DNA of 43,650 bases from an uncultured Candidatus Bathyarchaeia archaeon (GCA_964346135.1 CAYFTS010000084.1:1-43650); one strand, 5' to 3'; counted from the first letter of the stretch, positions 4,071 through 13,421 are shown. The notes: generated by a model not told the origin, from the sequence alone. Program-made: numbers and translations.

Positions 4071-4205
4071 AGAAAGCCTCAGCCGAGCTAACCTGACATT
4101 CTATCTCAATAGTTATCTGAACATCAGAAACGAATAAGCCTTTTCGCGCATCCATGCAAGATTTGCGCGGGCGTTTGTAAGCATTTCCACTTTCTGAGTT
4201 TCCAA

Positions 4206-4217
4206 TGCATGCATGCA
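4206..4217. repeat. perfect 12-nt palindrome TGCATGCATGCA
   Basis: Read directly. Lies in ORF-poor DNA 136 nt upstream of the htpX start. Member of the TGCATGCA cluster. Confidence 0.9.
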
Positions 4218-4468
4218 CATATCTTCGGACAGGACCATATGTCTGTTTCATCAATATTTCATTTCAAAAACAACGTATATTAAGATACAAGACAATAATT
4301 ATTACTGGTGCGTGCGATGGGGTACGTTCGCACTTACCGAGAAGAGAAAGGAGAAACACCCTACCTCACCTCCCGATGTCCCTCCTTCTGCGCGCGCACC
4401 TTTAATAAAGTACTTTTTGCTTTGATTAATTTGCTTCTGGACCCGGTTAATTGGATACCAACCTCGAT

Positions 4469-4496
4469 TAATTTGAGTGCATGCATGCTCAAATTA
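4469..4496. repeat. 28-nt inverted repeat: 9-bp arms TAATTTGAG/CTCAAATTA around TGCATGCATG
   Basis: Read directly. The arms are perfectly complementary and the centre is itself a TGCATGCA palindrome. Confidence 0.85.
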
Positions 4497-4670
4497 GTTG
4501 ATTGAATGCGCGCACGAGGAGTTTGCAGACTCAACTCGGTCATAGTTTGCGAATTGCCAAGATGCAAATGTATCATGAGGACAGAAAGAACGCATTGATC
4601 AAACTCGATGAACTATTGAAGAAGGGGTACAAGACGTTCTATGAGTTTAGGCAAACCATTACCCGTTTCC

Positions 4671-4684
4671 TTGCATGCATGCAA
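4671..4684. repeat. perfect 14-nt palindrome TTGCATGCATGCAA
   Basis: Read directly. Lies 49 nt upstream of the small zinc-ribbon ORF at 4733. Confidence 0.9.
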
Positions 4685-4732
4685 ATTGCTTTTATGTATG
4701 TTCGTTGAAAACAGTGGTTTAGAGGTGCTGTA

Positions 4733-4852
4733 ATGCCTTATTGTTCGAAATGCGGAACTGAATTGAAACAGGACGCCAAATTCTGTCAAAAGTGCGGAGC
4801 ATCTACTAGCAGACGCGTTACAAGAGAGAAAAACCTCGAGTGGTGGGGATAA
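4733..4852 (+). CDS. 39-aa zinc-ribbon mini-protein (below the ORF-track cutoff)
   Basis: ATG 4733 to TAA 4850-4852 translates as MPYCSKCGTELKQDAKFCQKCGASTSRRVTREKNLEWWG. The CxxC-x10-CxxC pattern is paralogous to the N-terminus of the next gene, which starts 4 nt later. Confidence 0.45.
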   Translation: MPYCSKCGTELKQDAKFCQKCGASTSRRVTREKNLEWWG

Positions 4853-4855
4853 CCT

Positions 4856-5209
4856 ATGGTATATTGCACTAAATGTGGCACCAAAAACGAGGAAGGCGCT
4901 AGTCATTGCACTAAATGCGGGGCGAACCTGAAGGTCTCACGAGAGGGAAGGTTTGAAAGACGTGTGGAGGAATGGGGAGAAGACTTCGGAAGACGTGCGG
5001 AAAAAGAATGTTTTGGACTCCCCCACGGTGGCTCAATTGCAGGACTAATCATTGGCATCATAATAATAATCGTAGCTCTTTCTTGGATACCTGGATTGAT
5101 TTCGCCTGAAGTGCGAGAAGTAACTGACCCGCTCTTCTGGCCAGTCATAATAATCGTCTTTGGAATACTGATAGTAGCTGGAGGCCTGTATGGTCTTAGA
5201 CGCAGATAA
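4856..5209 (+). CDS. zinc-ribbon domain membrane protein
   Basis: N-terminal MVYCTKCGTKNEEGASHCTKCGANL zinc ribbon, a charged linker, then two C-terminal TM helices. Confidence 0.7.
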   Translation: MVYCTKCGTKNEEGASHCTKCGANLKVSREGRFERRVEEWGEDFGRRAEKECFGLPHGGSIAGLIIGIIIIIVALSWIPGLISPEVREVTDPLFWPVIIIVFGILIVAGGLYGLRRR

Positions 5210-5220
5210 TACTCCACCTC

Positions 5221-5229
5221 TTTTTTTTT
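5221..5229 (+). terminator. oligo-T (T9) terminator
   Basis: A run of nine T starts 12 nt after the TAA at 5207-5209. Confidence 0.4.
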
Positions 5230-5289
5230 CTAGAGCTTTCTTCCAAGGAATTTTACGTGCATGCATACATTAAGAAACGAGGACTCTCA

Positions 5290-5580
5290 AGCCTTTGCGA
5301 CGTACATGGAGGAGCTAGGAATGACGTAGCGCACAGTTTAGTGCTAATCTTCTAGAAAATTAGCGGTATCTTTTTCACCAAGATTAATTAGGTAATGCAA
5401 CTGCTTGGGCACAAGAACATAAACAACACTTTAATATACACCCAACTCATCAACTTTGAAAGCGATGAATTCCACGTCAGAGTTGCAAAAAACCTTAAGG
5501 AAGACGAAGAACTAATTGAGGCAGGCTTTGAATATGTCACAGAACGAGACGGAGTCAAAATCTACCGAAAGCGAAAGTAA
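5290..5580 (+). pseudogene. decayed tyrosine recombinase/integrase (C-terminal remnant)
   Basis: 5395-5580 encodes MQLLGHKNINNTLIYTQL, the LGH...Y catalytic-Tyr box, plus a C-terminal tail. Upstream integrase-like pieces (FATYMEELG, ISGIFFTKIN) lie in other frames and are broken by stops at 5353 and 5389. No N-terminal domain remains. Confidence 0.6.
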
Positions 5581-6610: not shown

Positions 6611-7435
6611 CTATGGCTTTACCTTGTGAGGCTTGATTTTCCCACCATTCGCTTGAACTATGTCAGAGAGTTGAATTAACGCTCTGCTAACGCGTTTTTT
6701 AGCTAAACTCGAGTTTTCAGCCGTAGTGGAAAGATGAAGCTCTAAATGAGGAATCCTTTCTTCCGCCTTCGGATGAGACTTTATATAAACATAAGGATTA
6801 TCCTGCACTACCCGATCAATAAGCGGCGCAACCGCAGACTCCCCGATTCCAGTCACATACAGACTTGTTTCAAAAAAAGTCACTTTACCCGCAGCCTGCT
6901 TAAGCATAGGCGCAATTGACTCCTCGAATATAGCCTTCATTTCAGAGGGAACCCCTGGCAACGCTATGATGGTGATGTTGTTATGTTTTATGATTACTCC
7001 AGGAGCGGTTCCAACAGGGTTGAACAGTGGCTCTGCCCCTTTTGGAAGCTTTGCCATTTTGACTCGGTGAGGAGTTAACTCAACCTTTTCCATTCGACCT
7101 TCCTCCATGTATTGGCGGTATTTTTCTCGAACCATTTTCAAAGCCTGATCATGAGTTACCAGTTTGCGTTTCAGCGCCTTAGCGATGCCTTCTAGGGTTT
7201 TGTCGTCGAAGGTTGGACCTAAACCTCCAGTGGTTATGATGAAACTTGGGGCGCGTTGAATTGTCTCTTGCAAGGCAGTGGATATCTCGTCAACGTTATC
7301 GCCTATGATGGTAATGCGTTGAGTGTTTAGTCCTAGGGTAATGATGCGTTTGGCGAGCCATTGAGCATTAGTGTTTACGGTTTTGCCAATTAGCAACTCA
7401 TTTCCCACACAGATTAGTTCTATTGACGAAGCCAT
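6611..7435 (-). CDS. CinA-like / MoCF-binding domain protein (COG1058 type)
   Basis: The N-terminus ELICVGNELLIGKTVNTNAQWLA, and TTGGLGPTFDDKT, are typical of the CinA N-terminal molybdopterin-binding-fold domain. Confidence 0.8.
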   Translation of the reverse strand: MASSIELICVGNELLIGKTVNTNAQWLAKRIITLGLNTQRITIIGDNVDEISTALQETIQRAPSFIITTGGLGPTFDDKTLEGIAKALKRKLVTHDQALKMVREKYRQYMEEGRMEKVELTPHRVKMAKLPKGAEPLFNPVGTAPGVIIKHNNITIIALPGVPSEMKAIFEESIAPMLKQAAGKVTFFETSLYVTGIGESAVAPLIDRVVQDNPYVYIKSHPKAEERIPHLELHLSTTAENSSLAKKRVSRALIQLSDIVQANGGKIKPHKVKP

Positions 7436-7527
7436 TTATGGTTCACCCAGTTTGGCGGGATTCTAACGTTATTATTTGGAAGAACATAAGGTAATAACTG
7501 CTTCGTTTAATCTAAATCAAAGAGATA

Positions 7528-7547
7528 TGGCGCCCTGGCCGGGATTT
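7528..7547 (-). repeat. orphan intron-less copy of the tRNA-Asp 3' end (positions 57-76 including CCA)
   Basis: The minus strand reads AAATCCCGGCCAGGGCGCCA. This equals tRNA-Asp exon 1 end (10038-10027) joined to exon 2 (9996-9989), 20/20 nt. Confidence 0.85.
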
Positions 7548-9060
7548 ATGAAACGTGTAGTTTCTTATGTAGGGCTCCTGCTAGCGATTCGCCCATCTCT
7601 GTCAGGCTAACTGAATCCTCTCGCAAATTGAAATATCTTGTTTTCGGAGATTGTTTTGCATCTTCGTTTACCCACACTCTTACAGATTCTGGAACTTCTG
7701 ATAATTTGATAGATACCTTACTGTATAAGGTTCTCAAGAAATCAAATCTTTGCCCAACCTCTTCGTTCTGTCTAACAAGTTTTCGTATGCTTCTAGCTGG
7801 AACTCTTCTTACAATTTCTTCTAGGTCAGATGGCTTTATCTCGCCTCCTCTCAATATCATTTTTAGAAATGGAAATCCAAAGTATAGGAAGACCAAGAAC
7901 ACAGCTATTAGGACAATCATCGACACATTGAAAAATGTTCTCCAAGCCATTTTCTCGCTTAAACCGATCCACTCAAGAGTGGGTATGCCAAGAAAAATGA
8001 AAAGAAGCGTAACTACTACAAAAATAGATGAAGTGAGATGTTTTCTTCTAAAGAACAACTCTATTGGGATAAATGGCAATGAAACCACCATTATTGCAGC
8101 AAATAAAACCACAATATCACCTCCCAAACCATGGAAAGTGATGTATACCCAGTTAAGAAAAGGAATGGAGATTTTCAGTAAGGCCAATGAGGTCAAGAAT
8201 CCTATAAAAACCAGAGCTAACCACAAGGGTTCCCACTTTTCTTTACTGTTTAAAGTAGGTTTGTATTCTTTTGAAATGATTGTCGGTGCATATTCGCCGC
8301 GCTTTCCTTCTTCAGGCAGCTTGCCTTTAGGTTCTATTTCTGCAATAGCAGTGCCGAAAATTGAGCCAACTATCTTAATGCTAGAGTAGTTGCCTTCCTC
8401 CAACATAACTCGCAGCGGTTTCTTAGCTCGTTCTGAGGCCAAAAAAATAAGTTCTTGAGCGAGCCAACGCGTTGTCTTTGTCGCTTCATCACTCCTAACT
8501 AGTGCCTCAATGCTTTCTTTTCCTTTTTTGTATGCAATTGAGAATGTGAGTAACAAAAGCAATGCTAAGCCAGTAAAAATCCATGACAAGAATTCTAGAT
8601 TGAGGACCTGAGCAAGAAGAATTCCAAATGGACTAATGATTAGGCCACCGAGGATTAAAAGGTTCTGTGTGCGATTTGGCAGTCTGTACTTTCTCAATAT
8701 TTCGTCCCAATTAGTCTGACACTTGCCACCTATCAGATTGACGACTTTTGTGACGTTCCCAGAATAGAAAAATTGTTGACTGGGGACTTTTTTCGAACCG
8801 ACTATACTCAGCCAGTAAATAGCCTTTGTTAAGTCTGATATTAGTACATCATCAATAGTTCCCTTAACCAGCTTCGACGCGCGTCGAAATTCAAAACAGA
8901 TATAAAGCGAAAAAATTGCAAAATCGCCTACGAACCAAAACAGCGACCATGGAGGTAGGTTTAACATAAAGGGGACAAATAAGGTTACAACCCATAACAT
9001 TATGAAAACGAGCATTCTAGGCAGAAGTTTTCTGTACGTGTAGATAACATCAGCGCCCAT
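7546..9060 (-). CDS. 504-aa polytopic membrane protein, function unknown (element cargo)
   Basis: Long ORF with about 10 hydrophobic helices in two blocks, separated and followed by soluble segments. The stop codon TAA (7546-7548) overlaps the first two nt of the repeat. Confidence 0.7.
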   Translation of the reverse strand: MGADVIYTYRKLLPRMLVFIMLWVVTLFVPFMLNLPPWSLFWFVGDFAIFSLYICFEFRRASKLVKGTIDDVLISDLTKAIYWLSIVGSKKVPSQQFFYSGNVTKVVNLIGGKCQTNWDEILRKYRLPNRTQNLLILGGLIISPFGILLAQVLNLEFLSWIFTGLALLLLLTFSIAYKKGKESIEALVRSDEATKTTRWLAQELIFLASERAKKPLRVMLEEGNYSSIKIVGSIFGTAIAEIEPKGKLPEEGKRGEYAPTIISKEYKPTLNSKEKWEPLWLALVFIGFLTSLALLKISIPFLNWVYITFHGLGGDIVVLFAAIMVVSLPFIPIELFFRRKHLTSSIFVVVTLLFIFLGIPTLEWIGLSEKMAWRTFFNVSMIVLIAVFLVFLYFGFPFLKMILRGGEIKPSDLEEIVRRVPARSIRKLVRQNEEVGQRFDFLRTLYSKVSIKLSEVPESVRVWVNEDAKQSPKTRYFNLREDSVSLTEMGESLAGALHKKLHVS

Positions 9061-9988
9061 ACAACATAATACGCTTCCCGAAGTTTTAATCTTTTCTACA
9101 GAATACTCATATAGCCTTGAAAAATGTCCACAGATTAATGAGAAATCAATTTGGCTAATCTTTCTCCCTTTTCTGAACTAACAAAGCCTACGCTTTTGTA
9201 ATATCTTCCTACATTTGGAGACTTTGATACTGTAAGCACATATGCGCCATCATAAGGACCATTAATCCGAGAAAACATGCCCATCTTGTAAAGTAAGAAT
9301 TTGATTTTCTCCAATCCTGAAAGGTTGACGGATTTGAAGGTTATTTCTTTTTTGCTCTTCGAAACGTGGCCTTCTCCATCTCCAAAGCATCTGATCCATT
9401 CTCTTCTAACATTTAAATCGCCATTCATAATTTCGGAAGGAATAGTCCAGTTGTGGCTATCGTAAGGACCATATCTTAGCAAATCATTAACAACAGCTAC
9501 CCGTCTAATCTCCACTCTTCCTCGTTTATAATCAATCCAAGGTTCATAATCATACACTTGCTTTACATGTTCGGCAAAATCTCTTAAGAGAACAGGATCA
9601 GTATTCCAAAATTCTAAGCCAACACGCCGATAACTCTCAGTTCGACAAGGTTTGCTCGCCTTTCTATTTCCTTCCGCAACTAAATACGCGTGAATCCCTG
9701 CTTTAGCAACACTCATTTCACTTGCATGTGGAGGCAAAGGACGCCTAACGCCCATAAAGCTTCTAGGACCAAGCCAAGCCGTATACCTTACCACGGTTCG
9801 TTTACCTATCCCGAGAACAGAAGCTATCTCAGAATTCGTCATGCCTTTCCGTTTCATATCCTTTGCTTTTTCTATTACTGAACTATGGATTCTCATCTTA
9901 AGATAAGAAAGGCTACATGTATACATAAAACTATGTTCACTTGGCGATGTGGAAAAATACGCGCTCCTATTAGACCCAGGTTCAAGGG
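7548..9988. mobile_element. 2.44-kb insertion bounded by tRNA-Asp 3'-end repeats (integrase-less integrated element)
   Basis: Flanked by the 20-nt direct repeat (7528-7547 versus 9989-9996 plus 10027-10038). Carries only two genes, collinear with the tRNA. No recombinase gene lies inside. Confidence 0.5.
9135..9896 (-). CDS. HTH plus double-LAGLIDADG (homing-endonuclease-like) protein
   Basis: N-terminal HTH (MTNSEIASVLGIGKRTVVRY), then two LAGLIDADG-type motifs (IHAYLVAEGN and WIRCFGDGEGHV). Start set at ATG 9896, because the track start at 10013 runs into the tRNA. Confidence 0.75.
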   Translation of the reverse strand: MRIHSSVIEKAKDMKRKGMTNSEIASVLGIGKRTVVRYTAWLGPRSFMGVRRPLPPHASEMSVAKAGIHAYLVAEGNRKASKPCRTESYRRVGLEFWNTDPVLLRDFAEHVKQVYDYEPWIDYKRGRVEIRRVAVVNDLLRYGPYDSHNWTIPSEIMNGDLNVRREWIRCFGDGEGHVSKSKKEITFKSVNLSGLEKIKFLLYKMGMFSRINGPYDGAYVLTVSKSPNVGRYYKSVGFVSSEKGERLAKLISH

Positions 9989-10096
9989 TGGCGCCCTTCG
10001 GCGGAAAAGACAACTCTTCTTTTCCTTGGCCGGGATTTGAACCCGGGTCGGGCGGGCGACAGCCGCCTATACTAGACCGGACTATACTACCAGGGC
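9989..10096 (-). tRNA. tRNA-Asp (anticodon GTC) with a 30-nt intron at 68/69 and encoded CCA
   Basis: Hand-folded cloverleaf. Acceptor GCCCTGG pairs with CCAGGGC only after 9997-10026 is removed. Anticodon arm is GGCGG-CTGTCGC-CCGCC; T arm is CCGGG-TTCAAAT-CCCGG; discriminator G plus CCA. Confidence 0.85.
9997..10026 (-). other. non-canonical bulge-helix-bulge tRNA intron
   Basis: The intron is AGGAAAAGAAGAGTTGTCTTTTCCGCCGAA. An 8-bp inner helix (GGAAAAGA/TCTTTTCC) is followed by a 3-nt bulge CA|A, a 4-bp helix (exon CGGC with intron GCCG), a 3-nt bulge AA|G, and CC:GG. This gives a 3-4-3 BHB with cleavage exactly at 68|69. Confidence 0.75.
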
Positions 10097-10319
10097 ATCA
10101 GCTTTGTAATTGACAAAACTACTCTACTTAAGTTTTTCATTGGCGTTGCTTTCGAGCTTAACATCACAAAGCGTTTCATACATCAAGATACGCTGTTTCT
10201 CACCATGACAAGCATGCGGACCCAAATTATGAGTATTCGAAGAAAGTTTTGGTCACAACGTGAAGTTCAGATGCATAAGGGCGCCTTGGTATCATGTTTT
10301 TGGAGTTTGGACGACTTTT

Positions 10320-10484
10320 ATGCAGCTAGTTTTCGCGTCAATAATTTTTGTGGTTATAGCGTTTATGTGGATTCAAGTATTGGATGTTGGAACTTGGGTC
10401 AAATGGCTGTTGCCCACATATAAGATGGAGCATGATGCTATGATAACAGCGGATCAAGAGTCTAGAGGTTTCAAAAACGACTGA
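10320..10484 (+). CDS. possible small single-pass membrane protein
   Basis: An ATG-started 54-aa portion of track ORF 10260..10484, with one clear TM helix (LVFASIIFVVIAFMWIQVL). There is no other support. Confidence 0.25.
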   Translation: MQLVFASIIFVVIAFMWIQVLDVGTWVKWLLPTYKMEHDAMITADQESRGFKND

Positions 10485-10544
10485 TAATGCTGTATGAATT
10501 TTTGTCGTTTGCAGTTCTTCTTATACTATTTTGGGTGTAAGGTT

Positions 10545-11648
10545 TTAGTAGTTCTTTGGTTCTGGATCCCTTATGAGTGACCCGGCTGCACAGTGGATTG
10601 TTCCGCTGTTCCTAGGAAGTACGAGGCTTGAGCATTCCACTTCGACCACTTCGACGCCTATGCTTTCAAGCCATTTCGTAGCTTTGGGATTCCCCTTTGG
10701 CACTAGAATTTTCATGGGTTCAAGGACAACCCCAGTCTCTGGACCTATTTTCTGATCTCGAGTCCAGTAACTGCGACATATTTCGTCTGGAGGTATTATG
10801 AACTTCCAGTCCATTTCCGCCTTCATCCAGTCCACCAAGTACGGGTCCAAGTATTTTGGGTCTTGGACGGCTGTGTGTCTGTCTATCATGACGTAACCTA
10901 GATTGAGTATTCCTAGGCGGCCTCCGTAGCCTGGGAGAATTCTAATATCAACCTCTGGGTCCTGTAACTTCACTATTCTTGCGAGCTGGATGTGACCAAA
11001 CTCATTTGCACGCATAACTTCAGTTTTCCTAGTGTTTGCACGAGGATAGTGTACAGCTATGACCAAGTGTTTCTCATCTAGCCAGGCTATGGTACCTCCC
11101 TCCGTCATGCCATTGCCCACGATCATACCGACAACTGGGCACCCAATTTCTGCGAGAGTCTGATAGGTGGGGGCTTCCTCTCCTTTGCGTATATTATCAT
11201 ACATGCGTAGTATGACTTCGCCGTAGACTGCTGGACGACATACGTCGTCGGTGTATATTGATTTCACTTGGTAGGGTGGGTCGTTTGGATCAGGTTTTCG
11301 AATGACGACTTCTACGCCTTCATCTTTGTAGGCTTTTACGAGATTTTCGTGGTGTTCAATAATCTCGTCCAGGTTGGGCTTTTCTGACATTCTCCAAGCT
11401 GCTAATGAGCTATCGTGGGGAGGCCAAGGCGTGGGTTTGCCAACACTTAAAAACTCTTTGCCAGGACGATGTAACAGCACCATTCTGAGTTTGCCGATGT
11501 TGGTGTTAGCCTTCCATTTCTTGCCCCAATATTTTTTCATTTCATCTTCAAAGTTCGAGAGAATCTGTGGATGATATTTCATGTATTGTTCATGAAGAGT
11601 CAAACCAGTATTTTTCTTAAAAGGGTCTTCCGCTTCTGTCATAAACAT
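10545..11648 (-). CDS. amidinotransferase / arginine deiminase-like (GME superfamily) enzyme
   Basis: 367 aa. The C-terminal NSGTIHCAAGSL motif with its catalytic Cys is typical of the guanidino-group-modifying enzyme fold. Confidence 0.75.
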   Translation of the reverse strand: MFMTEAEDPFKKNTGLTLHEQYMKYHPQILSNFEDEMKKYWGKKWKANTNIGKLRMVLLHRPGKEFLSVGKPTPWPPHDSSLAAWRMSEKPNLDEIIEHHENLVKAYKDEGVEVVIRKPDPNDPPYQVKSIYTDDVCRPAVYGEVILRMYDNIRKGEEAPTYQTLAEIGCPVVGMIVGNGMTEGGTIAWLDEKHLVIAVHYPRANTRKTEVMRANEFGHIQLARIVKLQDPEVDIRILPGYGGRLGILNLGYVMIDRHTAVQDPKYLDPYLVDWMKAEMDWKFIIPPDEICRSYWTRDQKIGPETGVVLEPMKILVPKGNPKATKWLESIGVEVVEVECSSLVLPRNSGTIHCAAGSLIRDPEPKNY

Positions 11649-12032: not shown

Positions 12033-12650
12033 ATGACAGTGAAGAAAATTTTAGAAGAATTACTGAAAGAAAGGGCTCCAGGACCTTCTCCATCATTCTC
12101 CATCTTCCATGTAGTGAAAGCATTGGAGTTAACTGCAAAAGAGGGGCCAATAGGAAGAGGAAAGTTATCTAAAAAGTTGAGAACAGGCGAGGGAGCAACC
12201 CGCACACTCCTCAACAGATTAATAGACGCAGGATTAATCGTCACATCCAAGCCAGGCTGTTCACTAACTAAAAAGGGAGAGACAATCTGGAACGATTTTC
12301 AGTCAATCTTCCGACAAAAAGTTAAGCTGGAAAAGAGCGAGCTAACACTTGCCAACTACAACATTGCAGTGCTGATTAAAGGTTGCGGAGACAAAGTGAA
12401 GACAGGAATAGAACAGCGTGACGCAGCACTCTTGGCTGGTGCTAAAGGAGCAACCACCTTAATATTCAAGAACCAAACGTTAATTCAGCCAGGAATAAGT
12501 GAAAACGTGGCTCAGGATTTTCCAGAAACCTTCAACCAAATCACTAGACAATTAGAGCTGGAAGAGAACGATGTGGTTGTAATTGGAAGTGCGGATACGT
12601 GGGAGAAGGCGGAATATGGAGCGTTAGCAGCTGGTTGGACACTTATCTAG
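12033..12650 (+). CDS. winged-helix DNA-binding protein (DUF4443-like)
   Basis: The N-terminal segment GPIGRGKLSKKLRTGEGATRTLLNRLIDAGLI looks like a wHTH. The C-terminal domain is unassigned. The family name is from memory only. Confidence 0.65.
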   Translation: MTVKKILEELLKERAPGPSPSFSIFHVVKALELTAKEGPIGRGKLSKKLRTGEGATRTLLNRLIDAGLIVTSKPGCSLTKKGETIWNDFQSIFRQKVKLEKSELTLANYNIAVLIKGCGDKVKTGIEQRDAALLAGAKGATTLIFKNQTLIQPGISENVAQDFPETFNQITRQLELEENDVVVIGSADTWEKAEYGALAAGWTLI

Positions 12651-12659
12651 AATAACGCG

Positions 12660-13421
12660 TTAAAACGTGAATTTTTCGCCTTCGGTGGAAACACGTTCTA
12701 GCATAGCATTAAGGTTTGTCATTCCCTCGTTGGTTTTTGCAGAAACTGGTATCAAAAGAAACTTCAATCCTAGTCGGTAAACGGCATGCGCCATATCGCG
12801 GCTTAGCAAACGTTTTGTTCCATTTAATTTTTCTTCAATAGCCGTTTCCAGAGCGTTAGGACTAGCAGACCAATCTACTATGCGGTTGATGTTTTCTGAT
12901 GGAAGAAGGTCACATTTAGACAGCACATAAGTCTGTGGAACGAAGAAGCGGTTGTAGACAGCGGCTGAAAGAAACAAGTTTGAAACGTAATTGAGAGGAT
13001 TAGAACAGAAAACAGAATCGAATAAGTACAGAATTGCCTTAGTTTCCTTAGTTAACTCGCTGACAATGTAAGGTCCACTCGCTCGAAAAGCAAAAAGCTC
13101 CATCTGACCCGGCGTATCCACAAGCACAATATCAGGACTAAGATTTTCAATTTCCTCTCCAATCATTTCTGTTTCTTCCGCAATCAAATCCGCCGCCATC
13201 ACCAAAGCGCCGTTGGGTCCAAGTCCATGTTTCTTCATGATTTCTTCAATGCTGACATAATCGCGGACATCAATGTCCGGTGAATATGGTAAAGTTAGAG
13301 CTCCCGGGTCCAAGTTTAAGATTATAGCTTTTTGTTTCGTAATTTTCAGCCAGTCAGCAAAAGAAGCGGTGAGAAGAGACTTGCCTGAGCCAGCGGTTCC
13401 TATGATAAACACGGTGAACAT
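12660..13421 (-). CDS. GPN-loop GTPase
   Basis: P-loop GTAGSGKS, NLDPG, and the signature LGPNGA (GPN) motif. At 253 aa it is typical of archaeal GPN GTPases. Confidence 0.9.
   Translation of the reverse strand: MFTVFIIGTAGSGKSLLTASFADWLKITKQKAIILNLDPGALTLPYSPDIDVRDYVSIEEIMKKHGLGPNGALVMAADLIAEETEMIGEEIENLSPDIVLVDTPGQMELFAFRASGPYIVSELTKETKAILYLFDSVFCSNPLNYVSNLFLSAAVYNRFFVPQTYVLSKCDLLPSENINRIVDWSASPNALETAIEEKLNGTKRLLSRDMAHAVYRLGLKFLLIPVSAKTNEGMTNLNAMLERVSTEGEKFTF

Follow-up and report, generated by a model that had tools for sequence, protein, structure and literature searches.

The tRNA-Asp locus analyzed here bears on the way in which introns come to occupy non-canonical positions of archaeal tRNA genes. 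It lies in a stretch of 43,650 nucleotides (the window) from an uncultured Candidatus Bathyarchaeia archaeon (GCA_964346135.1, CAYFTS010000084.1:1-43650). The sole concrete model for such a gain was built on one Caldiarchaeum locus and a putative recombinase (PMC3293823). In the window, a tRNA-Asp gene with an intron in its acceptor stem is followed by two open reading frames (ORF1 and ORF2) and by a displaced, intron-less copy of its own 3' end (the orphan). The original prediction regarded the whole arrangement as the in-situ insertion of a single 2,491-bp unit. Comparison with other Bathyarchaeia shows instead that the 2.44-kb insert is made up of two modules that recur separately, and not of one element (Table 1).

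Table 1. Features of the tRNA-Asp region and its flanks, with positions counted from the first letter of the window.
Feature	Position	Strand	Basis
tRNA-Asp(GUC), live gene	10096..9989	minus	
tRNA-Asp(GUC) exon 1, mature positions 1-68	10027..10096	minus	sequence, ARAGORN, Rfam, MFE fold
BHB mini-intron, 30 nt, at 68/69, 3' strand of acceptor stem, no ORF	9997..10026	minus	
tRNA-Asp exon 2 GGGCGCCA, positions 69-73 and encoded CCA	9989..9996	minus	
Module A (BHB intron, exon 2, spacer, ORF1)	10026..9135	minus	
Module A spacer, 92 nt	9897..9988	minus	
ORF1, 253 aa, N-terminal HTH and predicted monomeric double-motif LAGLIDADG endonuclease fold	9135..9896	minus	
ORF2, 504 aa, variable cargo (module B)	7546..9060	minus	
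Orphan, intron-less copy of tRNA-Asp positions 57-76, AAATCCCGGCCAGGGCGCCA	7528..7547	minus	20/20 match to spliced 3' end
cinA-like gene (MoCF_biosynth), host flank	6611..7435	minus	
C-terminal 61-aa tyrosine recombinase remnant (LLGHKNINNTLIYTQ...)	5395..5580	plus	
DDAH/amidinotransferase-like gene (amid), flank	10545-11648		
Block 100% identical to strain variant L095, 3,153 bp	7464..10616		

The live tRNA-Asp gene is preceded by a conserved archaeal promoter box (AATGAAAAACTTAAGTAGA) and is called by both ARAGORN and Rfam, yet its 3' end is wrongly set at 10021/10022 because of the intron. In the minimum-free-energy fold, the pre-tRNA contains a canonical 3-4-3 BHB (central helix CGGC/GCCG, bulges CAA and AAG), and a cut placed behind nucleotide two of the bulge reproduces the predicted exons exactly, with a boundary that can be shifted by 1 nt owing to flanking A residues. 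The acceptor stem that results from splicing is a perfect 7 bp (GCCCTGG/CCAGGGC). The central helix takes up the 3' strand of the T-stem, and hence the BHB competes with the T-arm fold. The 3-4-3 structure is conserved and has been kept through compensatory changes: in an alignment of 12 homologous introns the BHB cells are paired in 144 cases out of 144, with compensatory changes in four pairs, a score reached by 0 of 500 shuffles, and slid controls are at most 67% paired. The intron-containing gene is the only tRNA-Asp seen in the 43.6-kb window and on the module-A contigs, and up to three introns occur in tRNA-Asp genes of relatives. The host must thus process such substrates, and the 68/69 intron must presumably be removed by the host splicing endonuclease and ligase to yield a functional tRNA.

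The orphan is the sole match to its 20-mer in the window, even when three mismatches are allowed, and none is expected by chance (0 in 100 shuffles). In the live gene the same 20 nucleotides are split by the intron into 12 (10038-10027) and 8 (9996-9989), and the sequence beyond the repeat differs on both sides. No tyrosine or serine recombinase gene is found between the repeats of the window or within any module-A unit. The original prediction was right about the duplication, the 12 and 8 split, the differing outer sequence and the lack of an integrase between the repeats, as it was in assigning the intron to the live copy and not to the displaced one. The orphan overlaps the stop codon of ORF2 and lies at most about 20 nt from the conserved cinA promoter box. 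Across the lineages, an intron-less orphan follows ORF1 in eight of the nine cases with enough downstream sequence, and in four of them it abuts the ORF1 stop codon or lies within ~60 nt of it; tandem orphan arrays are seen in L100, L081 and L090. These orphans match the tRNA at 18-20 of 20 positions, although the synonymous divergence of ORF1 between lineages (0.7-2.2) would lead one to expect roughly seven changes in a neutral 20-mer; only two copies have decayed, in L081 and L090. Mismatches are concentrated towards the 5' side (positions 58-65), and CCAGGGCGCCA is unaltered in nine of the ten orphans seen after ORF1. The orphans are preserved across lineages, and the pattern fits a right homology arm in which the recipient tRNA renews the 3' part. 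A giant BHB intron reaching from position 68 to the orphan was also considered and rejected: the orphan carries CGGC, and pairing with the 5' strand of the central helix needs GCCG.

Module A carries an obvious candidate for mobility, ORF1, that had been overlooked in the original prediction. ORF1 matches Pfam LAGLIDADG_3 (E = 9e-10) and, in a PDB profile search, 1dq3. Its AF2 model (pLDDT 85.8) shows helices at residues 62-74 and 160-174, each followed by beta strands (numbering refers to the 252-residue query, with Met1 omitted). The best Foldseek matches of this model include I-DmoI over its whole length (TM 0.74-0.76), the endonuclease of an archaeal BHB rRNA intron, together with PI-PfuI and the TliVMA intein endonuclease (E = 3e-10 to 5e-9); WhiA was also among the matches. 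AF2, Foldseek and Pfam together recover in ORF1 two tandem alpha-beta-beta-alpha-beta-beta-alpha domains packed via two LAGLIDADG helices. The candidate catalytic residues fall in motif 1, IHAYLVAEG (E75-G76), and motif 2, IRCFGDGEG (E174-G175). At the first site, all family members that cover the region have E or D, E174 is invariant, and both acids closing the LAGLIDADG helices are retained in 17 more distant free-standing relatives. With dN/dS values of 0.08-0.18 and these conserved acids, ORF1 is, on its predicted fold, a LAGLIDADG homing-endonuclease-type protein under purifying selection. With 19 clusters among 5.8 billion proteins, this is a small family, and all members recovered from genome and metagenome scans adjoin a Bathyarchaeia-type tRNA-Asp. 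More distant HTH-LAGLIDADG representatives number roughly 390, and no member of this wider family was found within roughly 1.3 Mb of examined loci. In the spacer ahead of ORF1, all module-A loci have conserved the proximal part (CCCTTGAACCTGGGTCTAATAGGAGCGCG), even the one that lacks ORF1 (L050), and the distal A/T-rich part is presumably the ORF1 promoter. Two further ideas were tried and discarded: that the proximal spacer is a decayed third copy of the T-arm (p = 0.002-0.5 by local alignment against shuffled sequence, the sequences not being independent), and that the element is of viral origin, ORF1 homologues and the intron pattern being absent from a collection of 2.9 million viral contigs.

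Module B consists of ORF2 and an orphan. ORF2 has no match in Pfam, NCBIfam or PHROGs; inspected by eye, it shows long hydrophobic stretches and is apparently a multi-pass membrane protein. Other genomes carry it immediately behind an intron-less tRNA-Asp. In L084, ORF2 and an orphan stand behind such a gene, a 26-nt repeat brackets ORF2 and ORF1 is absent; in L090 and L081, cargo devoid of a LAGLIDADG gene is enclosed between two orphans, and in L094 an intact Phage_integrase lies near an ORF2 homologue. The intron and ORF1, for their part, occur without ORF2 in units of ~1 kb that hold ORF1 alone and no integrase (L087, L090, L101 and L103), with the orphan directly at the ORF1 stop codon in the last three and ~60 nt past it in L087. 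The 2,491-bp stretch cannot therefore be upheld as one unit and, since ORF2 with its orphan and the intron with ORF1 each occur separately, the orphan of the window cannot be attributed specifically to the arrival of the intron. The comparison does back the general idea of a mobile unit bringing a BHB intron and a replacement 3' exon, with a block that recurs in 11 lineages and an orphan in eight out of nine. This idea is not unprecedented, as an attP carrying an intron was proposed by Sugahara et al. 2012 (PMC3293823). No orphan is found between ORF1 and ORF2 in the window, which counts against simple homing into a locus with tRNA-Asp followed by ORF2, for which one is predicted; an extra step is hence needed. 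Speculatively, a microhomology-mediated deletion via AATC...AATC would leave exactly CATTAATCTGTGG.

The comparative analysis shows a strict linkage between intron and ORF1. The 68/69 intron is present in all 11 tRNA-Asp lineages linked to ORF1 and in one of the 13 without it (Fisher p = 1e-5, uncorrected for phylogeny). The same block of intron, GGGCGCCA, conserved spacer and ORF1 is found in these 11 lineages, at tRNA-Asp every time, and in all of them ORF1 lies outside the intron; in the window it starts 92 nt past exon 2, and the 30-nt intron is itself ORF-less. An intron in relatives free of the insertion was to uncouple the two according to the original prediction, and the single exception, L050, does have the 68/69 intron with ORF1 gone, but it keeps the spacer of module A. 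Because of this conserved spacer, L050 resembles an element in erosion more than an intron of independent origin, a state that is expected late in the life cycle of a homing endonuclease.

Closely related alleles add signs of exchange. Between L101 and L104, identity is 100% over the upstream flank and the 5' half of the tRNA and 99-100% past the orphan, but only ~85% in the interior from intron to orphan, where their cargo differs; the breakpoints of these mosaics lie in the tRNA and in the orphan. Outside the block that it shares with L095 without divergence (3.15 kb), the window differs from this strain variant by ~6.5% just downstream and by ~5% further upstream. The mosaics and the zero-divergence island point to a recent exchange with its limits in tRNA and orphan. 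The flanks downstream of orphans are unrelated from lineage to lineage. ORF1 clades co-vary with intron and tRNA variants, which is also compatible with mostly vertical descent.

The search for empty sites (the same flanks around an intron-less tRNA-Asp), put forward in the original prediction, returned only filled sites or intron-less tRNA-Asp genes outside synteny among genome, metagenome and exact-protein look-ups. Exact-protein look-ups of the flanking amid and cinA gave no record, the closest amid homologues (85% and 80% identity) have no adjoining tRNA-Asp, and in a cinA-based genome scan tRNA-Asp adjoins cinA in none of 80 Bathyarchaeia loci. The synteny of tRNA-Asp is too fluid for an empty site to be recovered from the genomes and metagenomes searched, and the direction of events is thus one that we infer. 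The gene beyond the orphan argues against simple insertion in situ, as cinA is not an ancestral neighbour of tRNA-Asp: throughout the Bathyarchaeia it is followed by the ATP_bind_1 GTPase (gtp) and DUF4443, an order from which it has been displaced here. Logan contig ends were also read as de Bruijn branch points that would give away an empty site present alongside; L082 stops precisely 30 nt into the orphan but L083 continues for 4 nt more, and the reading was dropped as unreliable.

We put at about even the chance of the following reading, in which the DNA behind tRNA-Asp is made up of two cassettes, each recurring with intron-less copies of the tRNA 3' end after it, and module A is the BHB-intron analogue of "collaborative homing". 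By analogy with its class, ORF1 would be a free-standing LAGLIDADG endonuclease that cuts the intron-less 3' part of tRNA-Asp DNA. The ORF-less mini-intron would interrupt this target in the resident gene and render the carrier immune, while the host splicing endonuclease would take the intron out of the RNA, so that the tRNA would still work. A cut in a naive tRNA-Asp would be repaired by copying the donor, with the tRNA body as left homology arm and the intron-less orphan beyond ORF1 presumably recruited as a short right arm. The recipient would thereby gain the intron, a replacement exon 2, ORF1 and any cargo located before the orphan. Module B (ORF2 and the orphan of the window) would be a separate cassette, bracketed by tRNA 3' ends as integrative elements leave, with module A now upstream of it. 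It is the strict co-occurrence of intron and ORF1 (11/11 against 1/13) that argues for ORF1 as a putative cutter of the intron-less allele at or near the insertion site, with the intron as a block to cutting. Against the homing reading, an intact orphan would itself be a target if ORF1 recognized only positions 57-76, yet it persists; recognition must hence reach upstream of position 57, or else the orphan is tolerated.

The cargoes bracketed by tRNA 3' repeats without a LAGLIDADG gene (L084, L090, L081) imply that another mechanism, probably integrases, makes the same repeats at tRNA-Asp. A trans-acting tyrosine recombinase, along the lines of the Sugahara model, might then explain all the cassettes as remnants of integrative elements with an attP that mimics the tRNA-Asp 3' end, the attP of module A having held the intron and ORF1 being a passenger or stabilizing gene. 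Archaeal integrases classically leave a tRNA 3' end in direct repeat (PMC3293823), and such repeats surround the insert here, with 20 nt in the window and 26 nt in L084. The tandem orphan arrays resemble serial integrations. The only traces of a recombinase are the integrase in L094 and the remnant in the window, which may have been left by an integrative element at this hotspot. This remnant lies 2 kb outside the unit. In the 11 module-A lineages the unit never contains an integrase, and in four of them it holds ORF1 alone. ORF1 belongs to a class known for self-mobilization at intron sites, is the sole protein that always accompanies the intron and is under strong purifying selection, and the viral contigs yielded nothing related. 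We deem an integrase origin of module A less likely than homing, but a rival to be taken seriously.

A single ancient insertion, vertical and immobile ever since, appears improbable. ORF1 would in that case have been domesticated as a WhiA-like regulator, a tRNA-Asp maturation factor or a nuclease against elements using tRNA-Asp as att site, and the orphans would be kept by gene conversion with the live tRNA. LAGLIDADG folds can indeed be domesticated as regulators, and WhiA is among the structural matches of ORF1. The element is also single-copy, always at the same site of the same tRNA, and the small size of its family, the invariable tRNA-Asp neighbourhood of the scan-found members, the co-variation of clades and the purifying selection on ORF1 all suit vertical descent. 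The mosaics, with identical flanks around an interior at 85%, and the zero-divergence island speak instead for recent cassette exchange, the flanks downstream of the orphans are unrelated between lineages, and ORF1 retains both catalytic acids, which WhiA is not known to do. Finally, a chance match or an assembly artefact, for which nothing speaks beyond the metagenomic assembly of the sequences, is refuted by the uniqueness of the 20-mer, by an architecture found in ten other lineages and by junctions that recur in three independent assemblies, since the order tRNA, intron, ORF1, ORF2, orphan is shared by L095 (an independent metagenome contig) and by L082 and L083 (Logan contigs from other runs).

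Among the closest known systems, archaeal rRNA BHB introns (e.g. those of I-DmoI, I-PorI and I-ApeI) harbour their LAGLIDADG ORF inside a long intron, and their homing leaves no duplicated target. Module A resembles them in enzyme class and fold (I-DmoI over its full length, TM ~0.75), in BHB splicing by host EndA and in its TACK hosts, but its ORF lies outside, 92 nt past the tRNA 3' end, its intron has minimal size and 20 nt of the target persist as an orphan copy. With SSV-type and pNOB8-type integration it shares the direct repeats of a tRNA 3' end around the insert and the tandem insertions at one tRNA; it differs in having no integrase in the unit, in repeats of 19-26 nt and in a regenerated tRNA end with an intron that is absent from the displaced copy.

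The precedent for collaborative homing is the free-standing F-CphI, encoded beside an ORF-less group I intron in psbA of cyanophage S-PM2 (Zeng, Bonocora & Shub 2009, as summarized in PMC6083498). The likeness extends to an endonuclease gene immediately downstream of the interrupted gene, outside the intron, and to the proposed logic, by which the intron stops self-cleavage and the nuclease gives the intron mobility. The phage system has a group I ribozyme and an Endo VII-type enzyme, in contrast to the 30-nt protein-spliced BHB intron and the LAGLIDADG protein found here, a candidate nuclease. The presumed target here is a tRNA gene of a cellular archaeal chromosome; the unit also brings an exon that replaces the resident one, and behind it stands the displaced copy of the target. 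Intron gain via mobile-element integration has been described for tRNA-Thr of Caldiarchaeum subterraneum (Sugahara et al. 2012, PMC3293823), where a non-canonical intron is again accompanied by a displaced intron-less tRNA fragment ~2 kb away and an insert in between, and where the incoming copy carries the intron in the model. That case, however, concerns the 5' side, position 24/25, a putative recombinase related to the pNOB8 type and one locus in one population, as opposed to the 3' side, position 68/69, a LAGLIDADG gene without recombinase and 11 lineages here. BHB introns gained at non-canonical positions at the DNA level have also been reported in tRNAs of TACK archaea (2010 study, as cited in PMC4090602). 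Similar introns are spread there across many different tRNAs, by an unknown mechanism and with no associated protein, whereas the present intron is linked to a single tRNA and a single neighbouring nuclease-type gene.

The locus thus presents an acceptor-stem intron bound physically and evolutionarily to one nuclease-type gene in 11 lineages, with footprints that end in the tRNA and in its displaced end. On a practical level, standard tRNA finders mis-set the 3' ends of such genes, and annotation pipelines call ORF1 merely a LAGLIDADG domain. If the homing reading is true, collaborative homing, so far a matter of phage group I introns, would extend to protein-spliced BHB introns of cellular genomes, homing elements would prove able to bring along a spare exon and a homology arm, and tRNA introns would be linked to selfish spread and to the protection of tRNA att sites. 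More generally, we tentatively suggest, as a possibility that falls short of an even chance, that archaeal free-standing endonucleases of the HTH-LAGLIDADG family spread by placing a minimal BHB intron, together with a replacement exon, in the targeted tRNA gene, with the orphan as a portable right homology arm; this would be the first enzyme-linked mechanism for non-canonical tRNA intron gain. The cassette could then home into a conserved tRNA in any genomic context, the intron would immunize the carrier gene against the nuclease and, incidentally, against integrases sharing the att site, and the roughly 390 distant representatives of the family may do likewise at other tRNAs.

The tRNA-Asp gene of the window is interrupted at position 68/69, and an intron-less copy of its 3' end (hereafter the orphan) lies on the same strand beyond two likewise collinear genes, ORF1 and ORF2. 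The orphan 20-mer finds a single match in the window at up to 3 mismatches, where none is expected by chance. Once spliced, the tRNA pairs perfectly in the acceptor stem (GCCCTGG/CCAGGGC), has G as discriminator and ends in an encoded CCA, and the minimum-free-energy fold of its precursor contains a canonical bulge-helix-bulge (BHB), with a central helix of 4 bp (C65-C68 with intron GCCG), 3-nt bulges (CAA and AAG) and an inner helix of 8 bp; cutting after the second bulge nucleotide reproduces the predicted exons exactly. Coordinates, unique 20-mer and fold thus bear out how the original prediction had described the sequence, as an exon/intron split in the live gene and a displaced intron-less 3' end. 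The BHB is upheld across 12 homologous introns (144/144 cells paired), with compensatory changes in four inner-helix pairs, and its score was reached by 0/500 shuffles, slid controls being at most 67% paired.

Features of the tRNA-Asp locus in the window, and orphans following ORF1 in related lineages
Feature	Position	Strand	Sequence	Remark
Live tRNA-Asp(GUC)	10096..9989	minus		
tRNA-Asp exon 1	10096..10027	minus		mature positions 1-68
tRNA-Asp 68/69 intron	10026..9997	minus		30 nt
tRNA-Asp exon 2	9996..9989	minus	GGGCGCCA	
ORF1	9896..9135	minus		N-terminal HTH + LAGLIDADG_3 domain
ORF2	9060..7546	minus	ATCTGTGG...ORF2 (leading into ORF2)	504 aa; apparently multi-pass membrane protein, by eye
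Orphan tRNA-Asp 3' end	7547..7528	minus	AAATCCCGGCCAGGGCGCCA	mature positions 57-76
Flank beyond orphan			TATCTCTTTG...cinA	cinA side
L087 orphan	~60 nt past ORF1 stop codon		AAATCCCGTCCAGGGCGCCA	
L090 orphan	overlaps ORF1 stop codon		AATCCCGGCCAGGGCGCCA	
L101 orphan	at ORF1 stop codon		perfect 20-mer	
L103/L105 orphan	at ORF1 stop codon		CCCGGCCAGGGCGCCA	
L104 orphan	1.1 kb past ORF1			
L099 orphan	2.6 kb past ORF1			
L100 orphans				two copies
L081 orphans	before and after MazE-PIN pair			decayed copy before, perfect copy after

Both ARAGORN and Rfam report a 75-77-nt tRNA-Asp at window 10021-10097, ending at 10021/10022 inside the intron, so that standard annotation would misplace the 3' end and overlook the intron. 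The tRNA-Asp genes of Bathyarchaeia carry 0 to 3 BHB introns (L007, L025, L050, L081, L097-L105 and L111 among the loci compared with the window), located in the D-loop (~20/21) or at ~37/38, ~47/48 and 68/69; L101 and L104, the 5' halves of which are otherwise identical, differ in whether they have the intron at 47/48, a second intron polymorphism. A longer 5' leader with GGCGC(T/C)...GGCC, complementary to the tRNA 3' terminal GCGCC and GGCC, is found in many relatives (L081, L090, L098, L101, L103, L050, L111), and the window leader is devoid of it.

Loci with ORF1 homologues were drawn from fetched contigs encoding them and from metagenomes scanned with the family alignment. Wherever upstream sequence is available, a tRNA-Asp precedes the homologue by 91-158 nt, and all these tRNA genes have the same 68/69 intron, exon 2 and conserved spacer, an assembly that together with ORF1 we term module A. 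The loci represent 11 lineages (window/L095/L082-83, L081 (=L096), L087-89, L090-93, L097, L098, L099, L100, L101, L103/L105 and L104), across which ORF1 amino-acid identity is 64-100%. The 68/69 junction is uninterrupted in the tRNA-Asp genes that have no ORF1 downstream (L005, L007, L009, L011, L022, L025, L036, L054, L060, L069, L084-86, L111), with one exception, L050, which has the 68/69 intron and the conserved proximal spacer but neither ORF1 nor orphan and looks like an eroded element. Hence, the intron accompanies 11/11 lineages with ORF1 and 1/13 without (Fisher p = 1e-5, for lineages that are not phylogenetically independent). Nine lineages extend far enough downstream to be judged, and in eight of them an intron-less tRNA-Asp 3' end follows ORF1; the L082-type and L097 contigs stop too early to be counted. 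In the remaining lineage, L098, none was found in the ~1.3 kb downstream. The positions of the orphans after ORF1 therefore delimit a minimal unit of ~1 kb, made up of intron, exon 2, spacer and ORF1.

The spacer directly past exon 2 (CCCTTGAACCTGGGTCTAATAGGAGCGCG, window 9960-9988, minus) is conserved in all module-A loci, ORF1-less L050 included. It weakly resembles the T-arm and acceptor 3' strand (p = 0.002-0.5 versus shuffles), tracks the GGGTCC T-arm variant of L090 and L103 in those two loci, and could be either a decayed third copy of the tRNA end or a binding site.

A single 2,491-bp unit carrying the intron and a replacement 3' exon had been put forward originally, but the insert of the window is composite. 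Homologues of ORF2, which has no match in Pfam, NCBIfam or PHROGs, occur without ORF1 83 nt after an intron-less tRNA-Asp in L084-86, directly after a tRNA-Asp with 47/48 as sole intron in L111, and behind a decayed tRNA-like fragment, with an intact Phage_integrase nearby, in L094. In L084 a 26-nt orphan (GGGTCCAAATCCCGGCTAGGGCGCCA), 25/26 identical to its own tRNA, lies 76 nt past the stop codon of the homologue. ORF2 and the orphan (module B) thus constitute a second, independent cassette at tRNA-Asp, and the window orphan, overlapping the stop codon of ORF2, may have arisen with ORF2 and not in the event that brought the intron. There is no orphan between ORF1 and ORF2 in the window, and we conjecture from its sequence that their junction (CATTAATCTGTGG), exactly the expected product, arose by microhomology deletion (AATC...AATC).

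Cargo in L100 (1516-1602, minus) and L099 (2224-2264, minus) holds inverted tRNA-Asp 5' fragments with their own promoter box; the former ends at CCCGAC, the site of the 47/48 intron of that genome, and the latter is joined to T-arm and acceptor-strand sequence from another tRNA. In L081 (12580-12640) the sequence past the perfect distal orphan is homologous to what in other module-A elements is the distal spacer (ORF1 promoter region), a hint that a second arrangement, intron-less, has left a remnant here.

A scan with the flanking cinA-like gene yielded 80 loci, nearly all from Bathyarchaeota/Bathyarchaeia, and the order cinA, ATP_bind_1 GTPase, DUF4443 is kept in ~70 of them, as well as in L081. 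The cinA of the window (6611-7435; cf. 12033-13421) has moved out of this order to directly beyond the orphan, and no more than ~20 nt separate the conserved cinA promoter box (TTAAACGAAGC) from the orphan, which therefore marks a synteny breakpoint. Some 2 kb further on, an ORF at 5395-5580 (plus) encodes a tyrosine recombinase reduced to its final 61 residues (LLGHKNINNTLIYTQ...; weak XerC and phrog_1 matches), an integrase remnant. No empty site was found among the cinA scan loci, the flank-gene look-ups or the homologue contexts. Fragments related to the recombinase remnant occur in L002 and L038, and five copies of a TGCATGCATGCA-type motif, some inverted, occupy intergenic positions around small zinc-ribbon genes at 4141-5269; the motif may be a regulatory box or an element relic. 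Two Logan contigs from a strain 99.4% identical to the window (L082/L083) break inside tRNA-Asp and 10-14 nt past the orphan, and since their terminal bases (TATCTTTTGAACTT) are unlike those of the window (TATCTCTTTGATTTAG), this flank may be polymorphic in those samples.

Among 5.8 billion proteins the ORF1 family comprises 19 clusters and the ORF2 family 11, so that both are very small. The AlphaFold model of ORF1 (pLDDT 85.8) superposes on LAGLIDADG endonucleases of the monomeric, double-motif type, namely PI-PfuI, the TliVMA intein endonuclease and, along all of its length, I-DmoI (TM 0.74-0.76); PI-PfuI is also found by the sequence profile. The two LAGLIDADG helices close with E75-G76 and E174-G175; all family members covering that region have E or D as the first acid, the second is invariant, and both are retained in 17 more distant free-standing relatives. 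Pairwise dN/dS is 0.08-0.18 at synonymous divergences of 0.7-2.2. Fold, retained acids and low dN/dS argue for a protein under selection, of homing-endonuclease type and probably catalytic. WhiA, a regulator derived from LAGLIDADG, is also among the structural matches of the model, so a role other than nuclease is possible. The wider family of free-standing HTH + double-LAGLIDADG proteins has 392 representatives (E <= 1e-10) with both catalytic acids conserved, and a search of viral contigs found nothing related.

Comparison of close relatives provides evidence of recent exchange. An independent strain-variant contig (L095), 98.2% identical to the window overall, shows 0 mismatches over 10616..7464 (3,153 bp), a block spanning the tRNA, ORF1, ORF2, the orphan and 64 further bases, versus 23 mismatches in 355 bp just outside it and ~5% divergence from 11521 upward. 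L101 and L104 are 100% identical in the upstream flank and tRNA 5' part and 99-100% from the orphan 3' part on, but only ~85% from the 68/69 intron through ORF1. The left limit of the exchange falls inside the tRNA and its right limit inside the orphan; L104 is further distinguished by the 47/48 intron and by 1.1 kb of cargo. Orphans carry 0-2 changes each, as against ~7 expected for a neutral 20-mer at synonymous divergence of at least 0.7; they are either constrained or repeatedly regenerated. The changes cluster at positions 58-65, and CCAGGGCGCCA is unchanged in nine of the ten orphans after ORF1; only the two decayed copies of L081 and L090 depart from this conservation.

With about even confidence, we propose by analogy to regard module A as a homing element built on the plan of the collaborative homing known from phages (PMC6083498). 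We infer that the free-standing endonuclease would cut intron-less tRNA-Asp DNA, while the ORF-less BHB intron would break the target site in the carrier and be removed from RNA by the host. With the tRNA body as left and the orphan as short right repair arm, the recipient would gain intron, exon 2, ORF1 and any cargo in any downstream context. At each transfer the pristine tRNA of the recipient would supply the 3' part of the orphan, which would explain the near-absence of mutations in that part. Architecture, intron-ORF1 linkage, fold, selection on ORF1, BHB conservation and mosaic alleles are demonstrated by the comparisons; cleavage and its site, the direction of events and the role of the two arms are inferred. 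An intact orphan would itself be a target unless recognition reaches upstream of position 57, and the missing empty site and ORF1-ORF2 orphan are further difficulties for homing. Integrase-mediated integration in trans, with an attP carrying the intron, has been proposed for Caldiarchaeum tRNA-Thr (PMC3293823); here it appears rather doubtful, since it accounts for the repeats and the LAGLIDADG-free cassettes but leaves unexplained both the strict, exclusive linkage of intron and ORF1 and the fact that no module-A unit contains an integrase. A single ancient insertion that is now immobile, ORF1 having been domesticated, would fit the way in which tRNA, intron and ORF1 clades vary together but would not account for the mosaic alleles, and we regard it as clearly improbable. 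Artefact or chance match is excluded by the unique 20-mer and by the recurrence of junctions and architecture in other contigs and lineages.

It is well established that LAGLIDADG endonucleases reside inside archaeal rRNA BHB introns and that tRNA 3' ends serve as integration sites. Intron gain through a mobile element has been proposed once before (PMC3293823), a review states the mechanism of archaeal tRNA intron transposition as unknown, and our full-text literature search yielded no account of a tRNA mini-intron with a linked LAGLIDADG gene. Under homing, the intron would moreover abolish the att site of the live gene and divert later integrations to the orphan, explaining why module A is always the tRNA-adjacent cassette. 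Extra cargo lies between two orphans in L090 (3.3 kb) and L081 (MazE-PIN), and the tRNA-Asp 3' end is evidently a landing pad that gathers cassettes with copies of the tRNA end between them.
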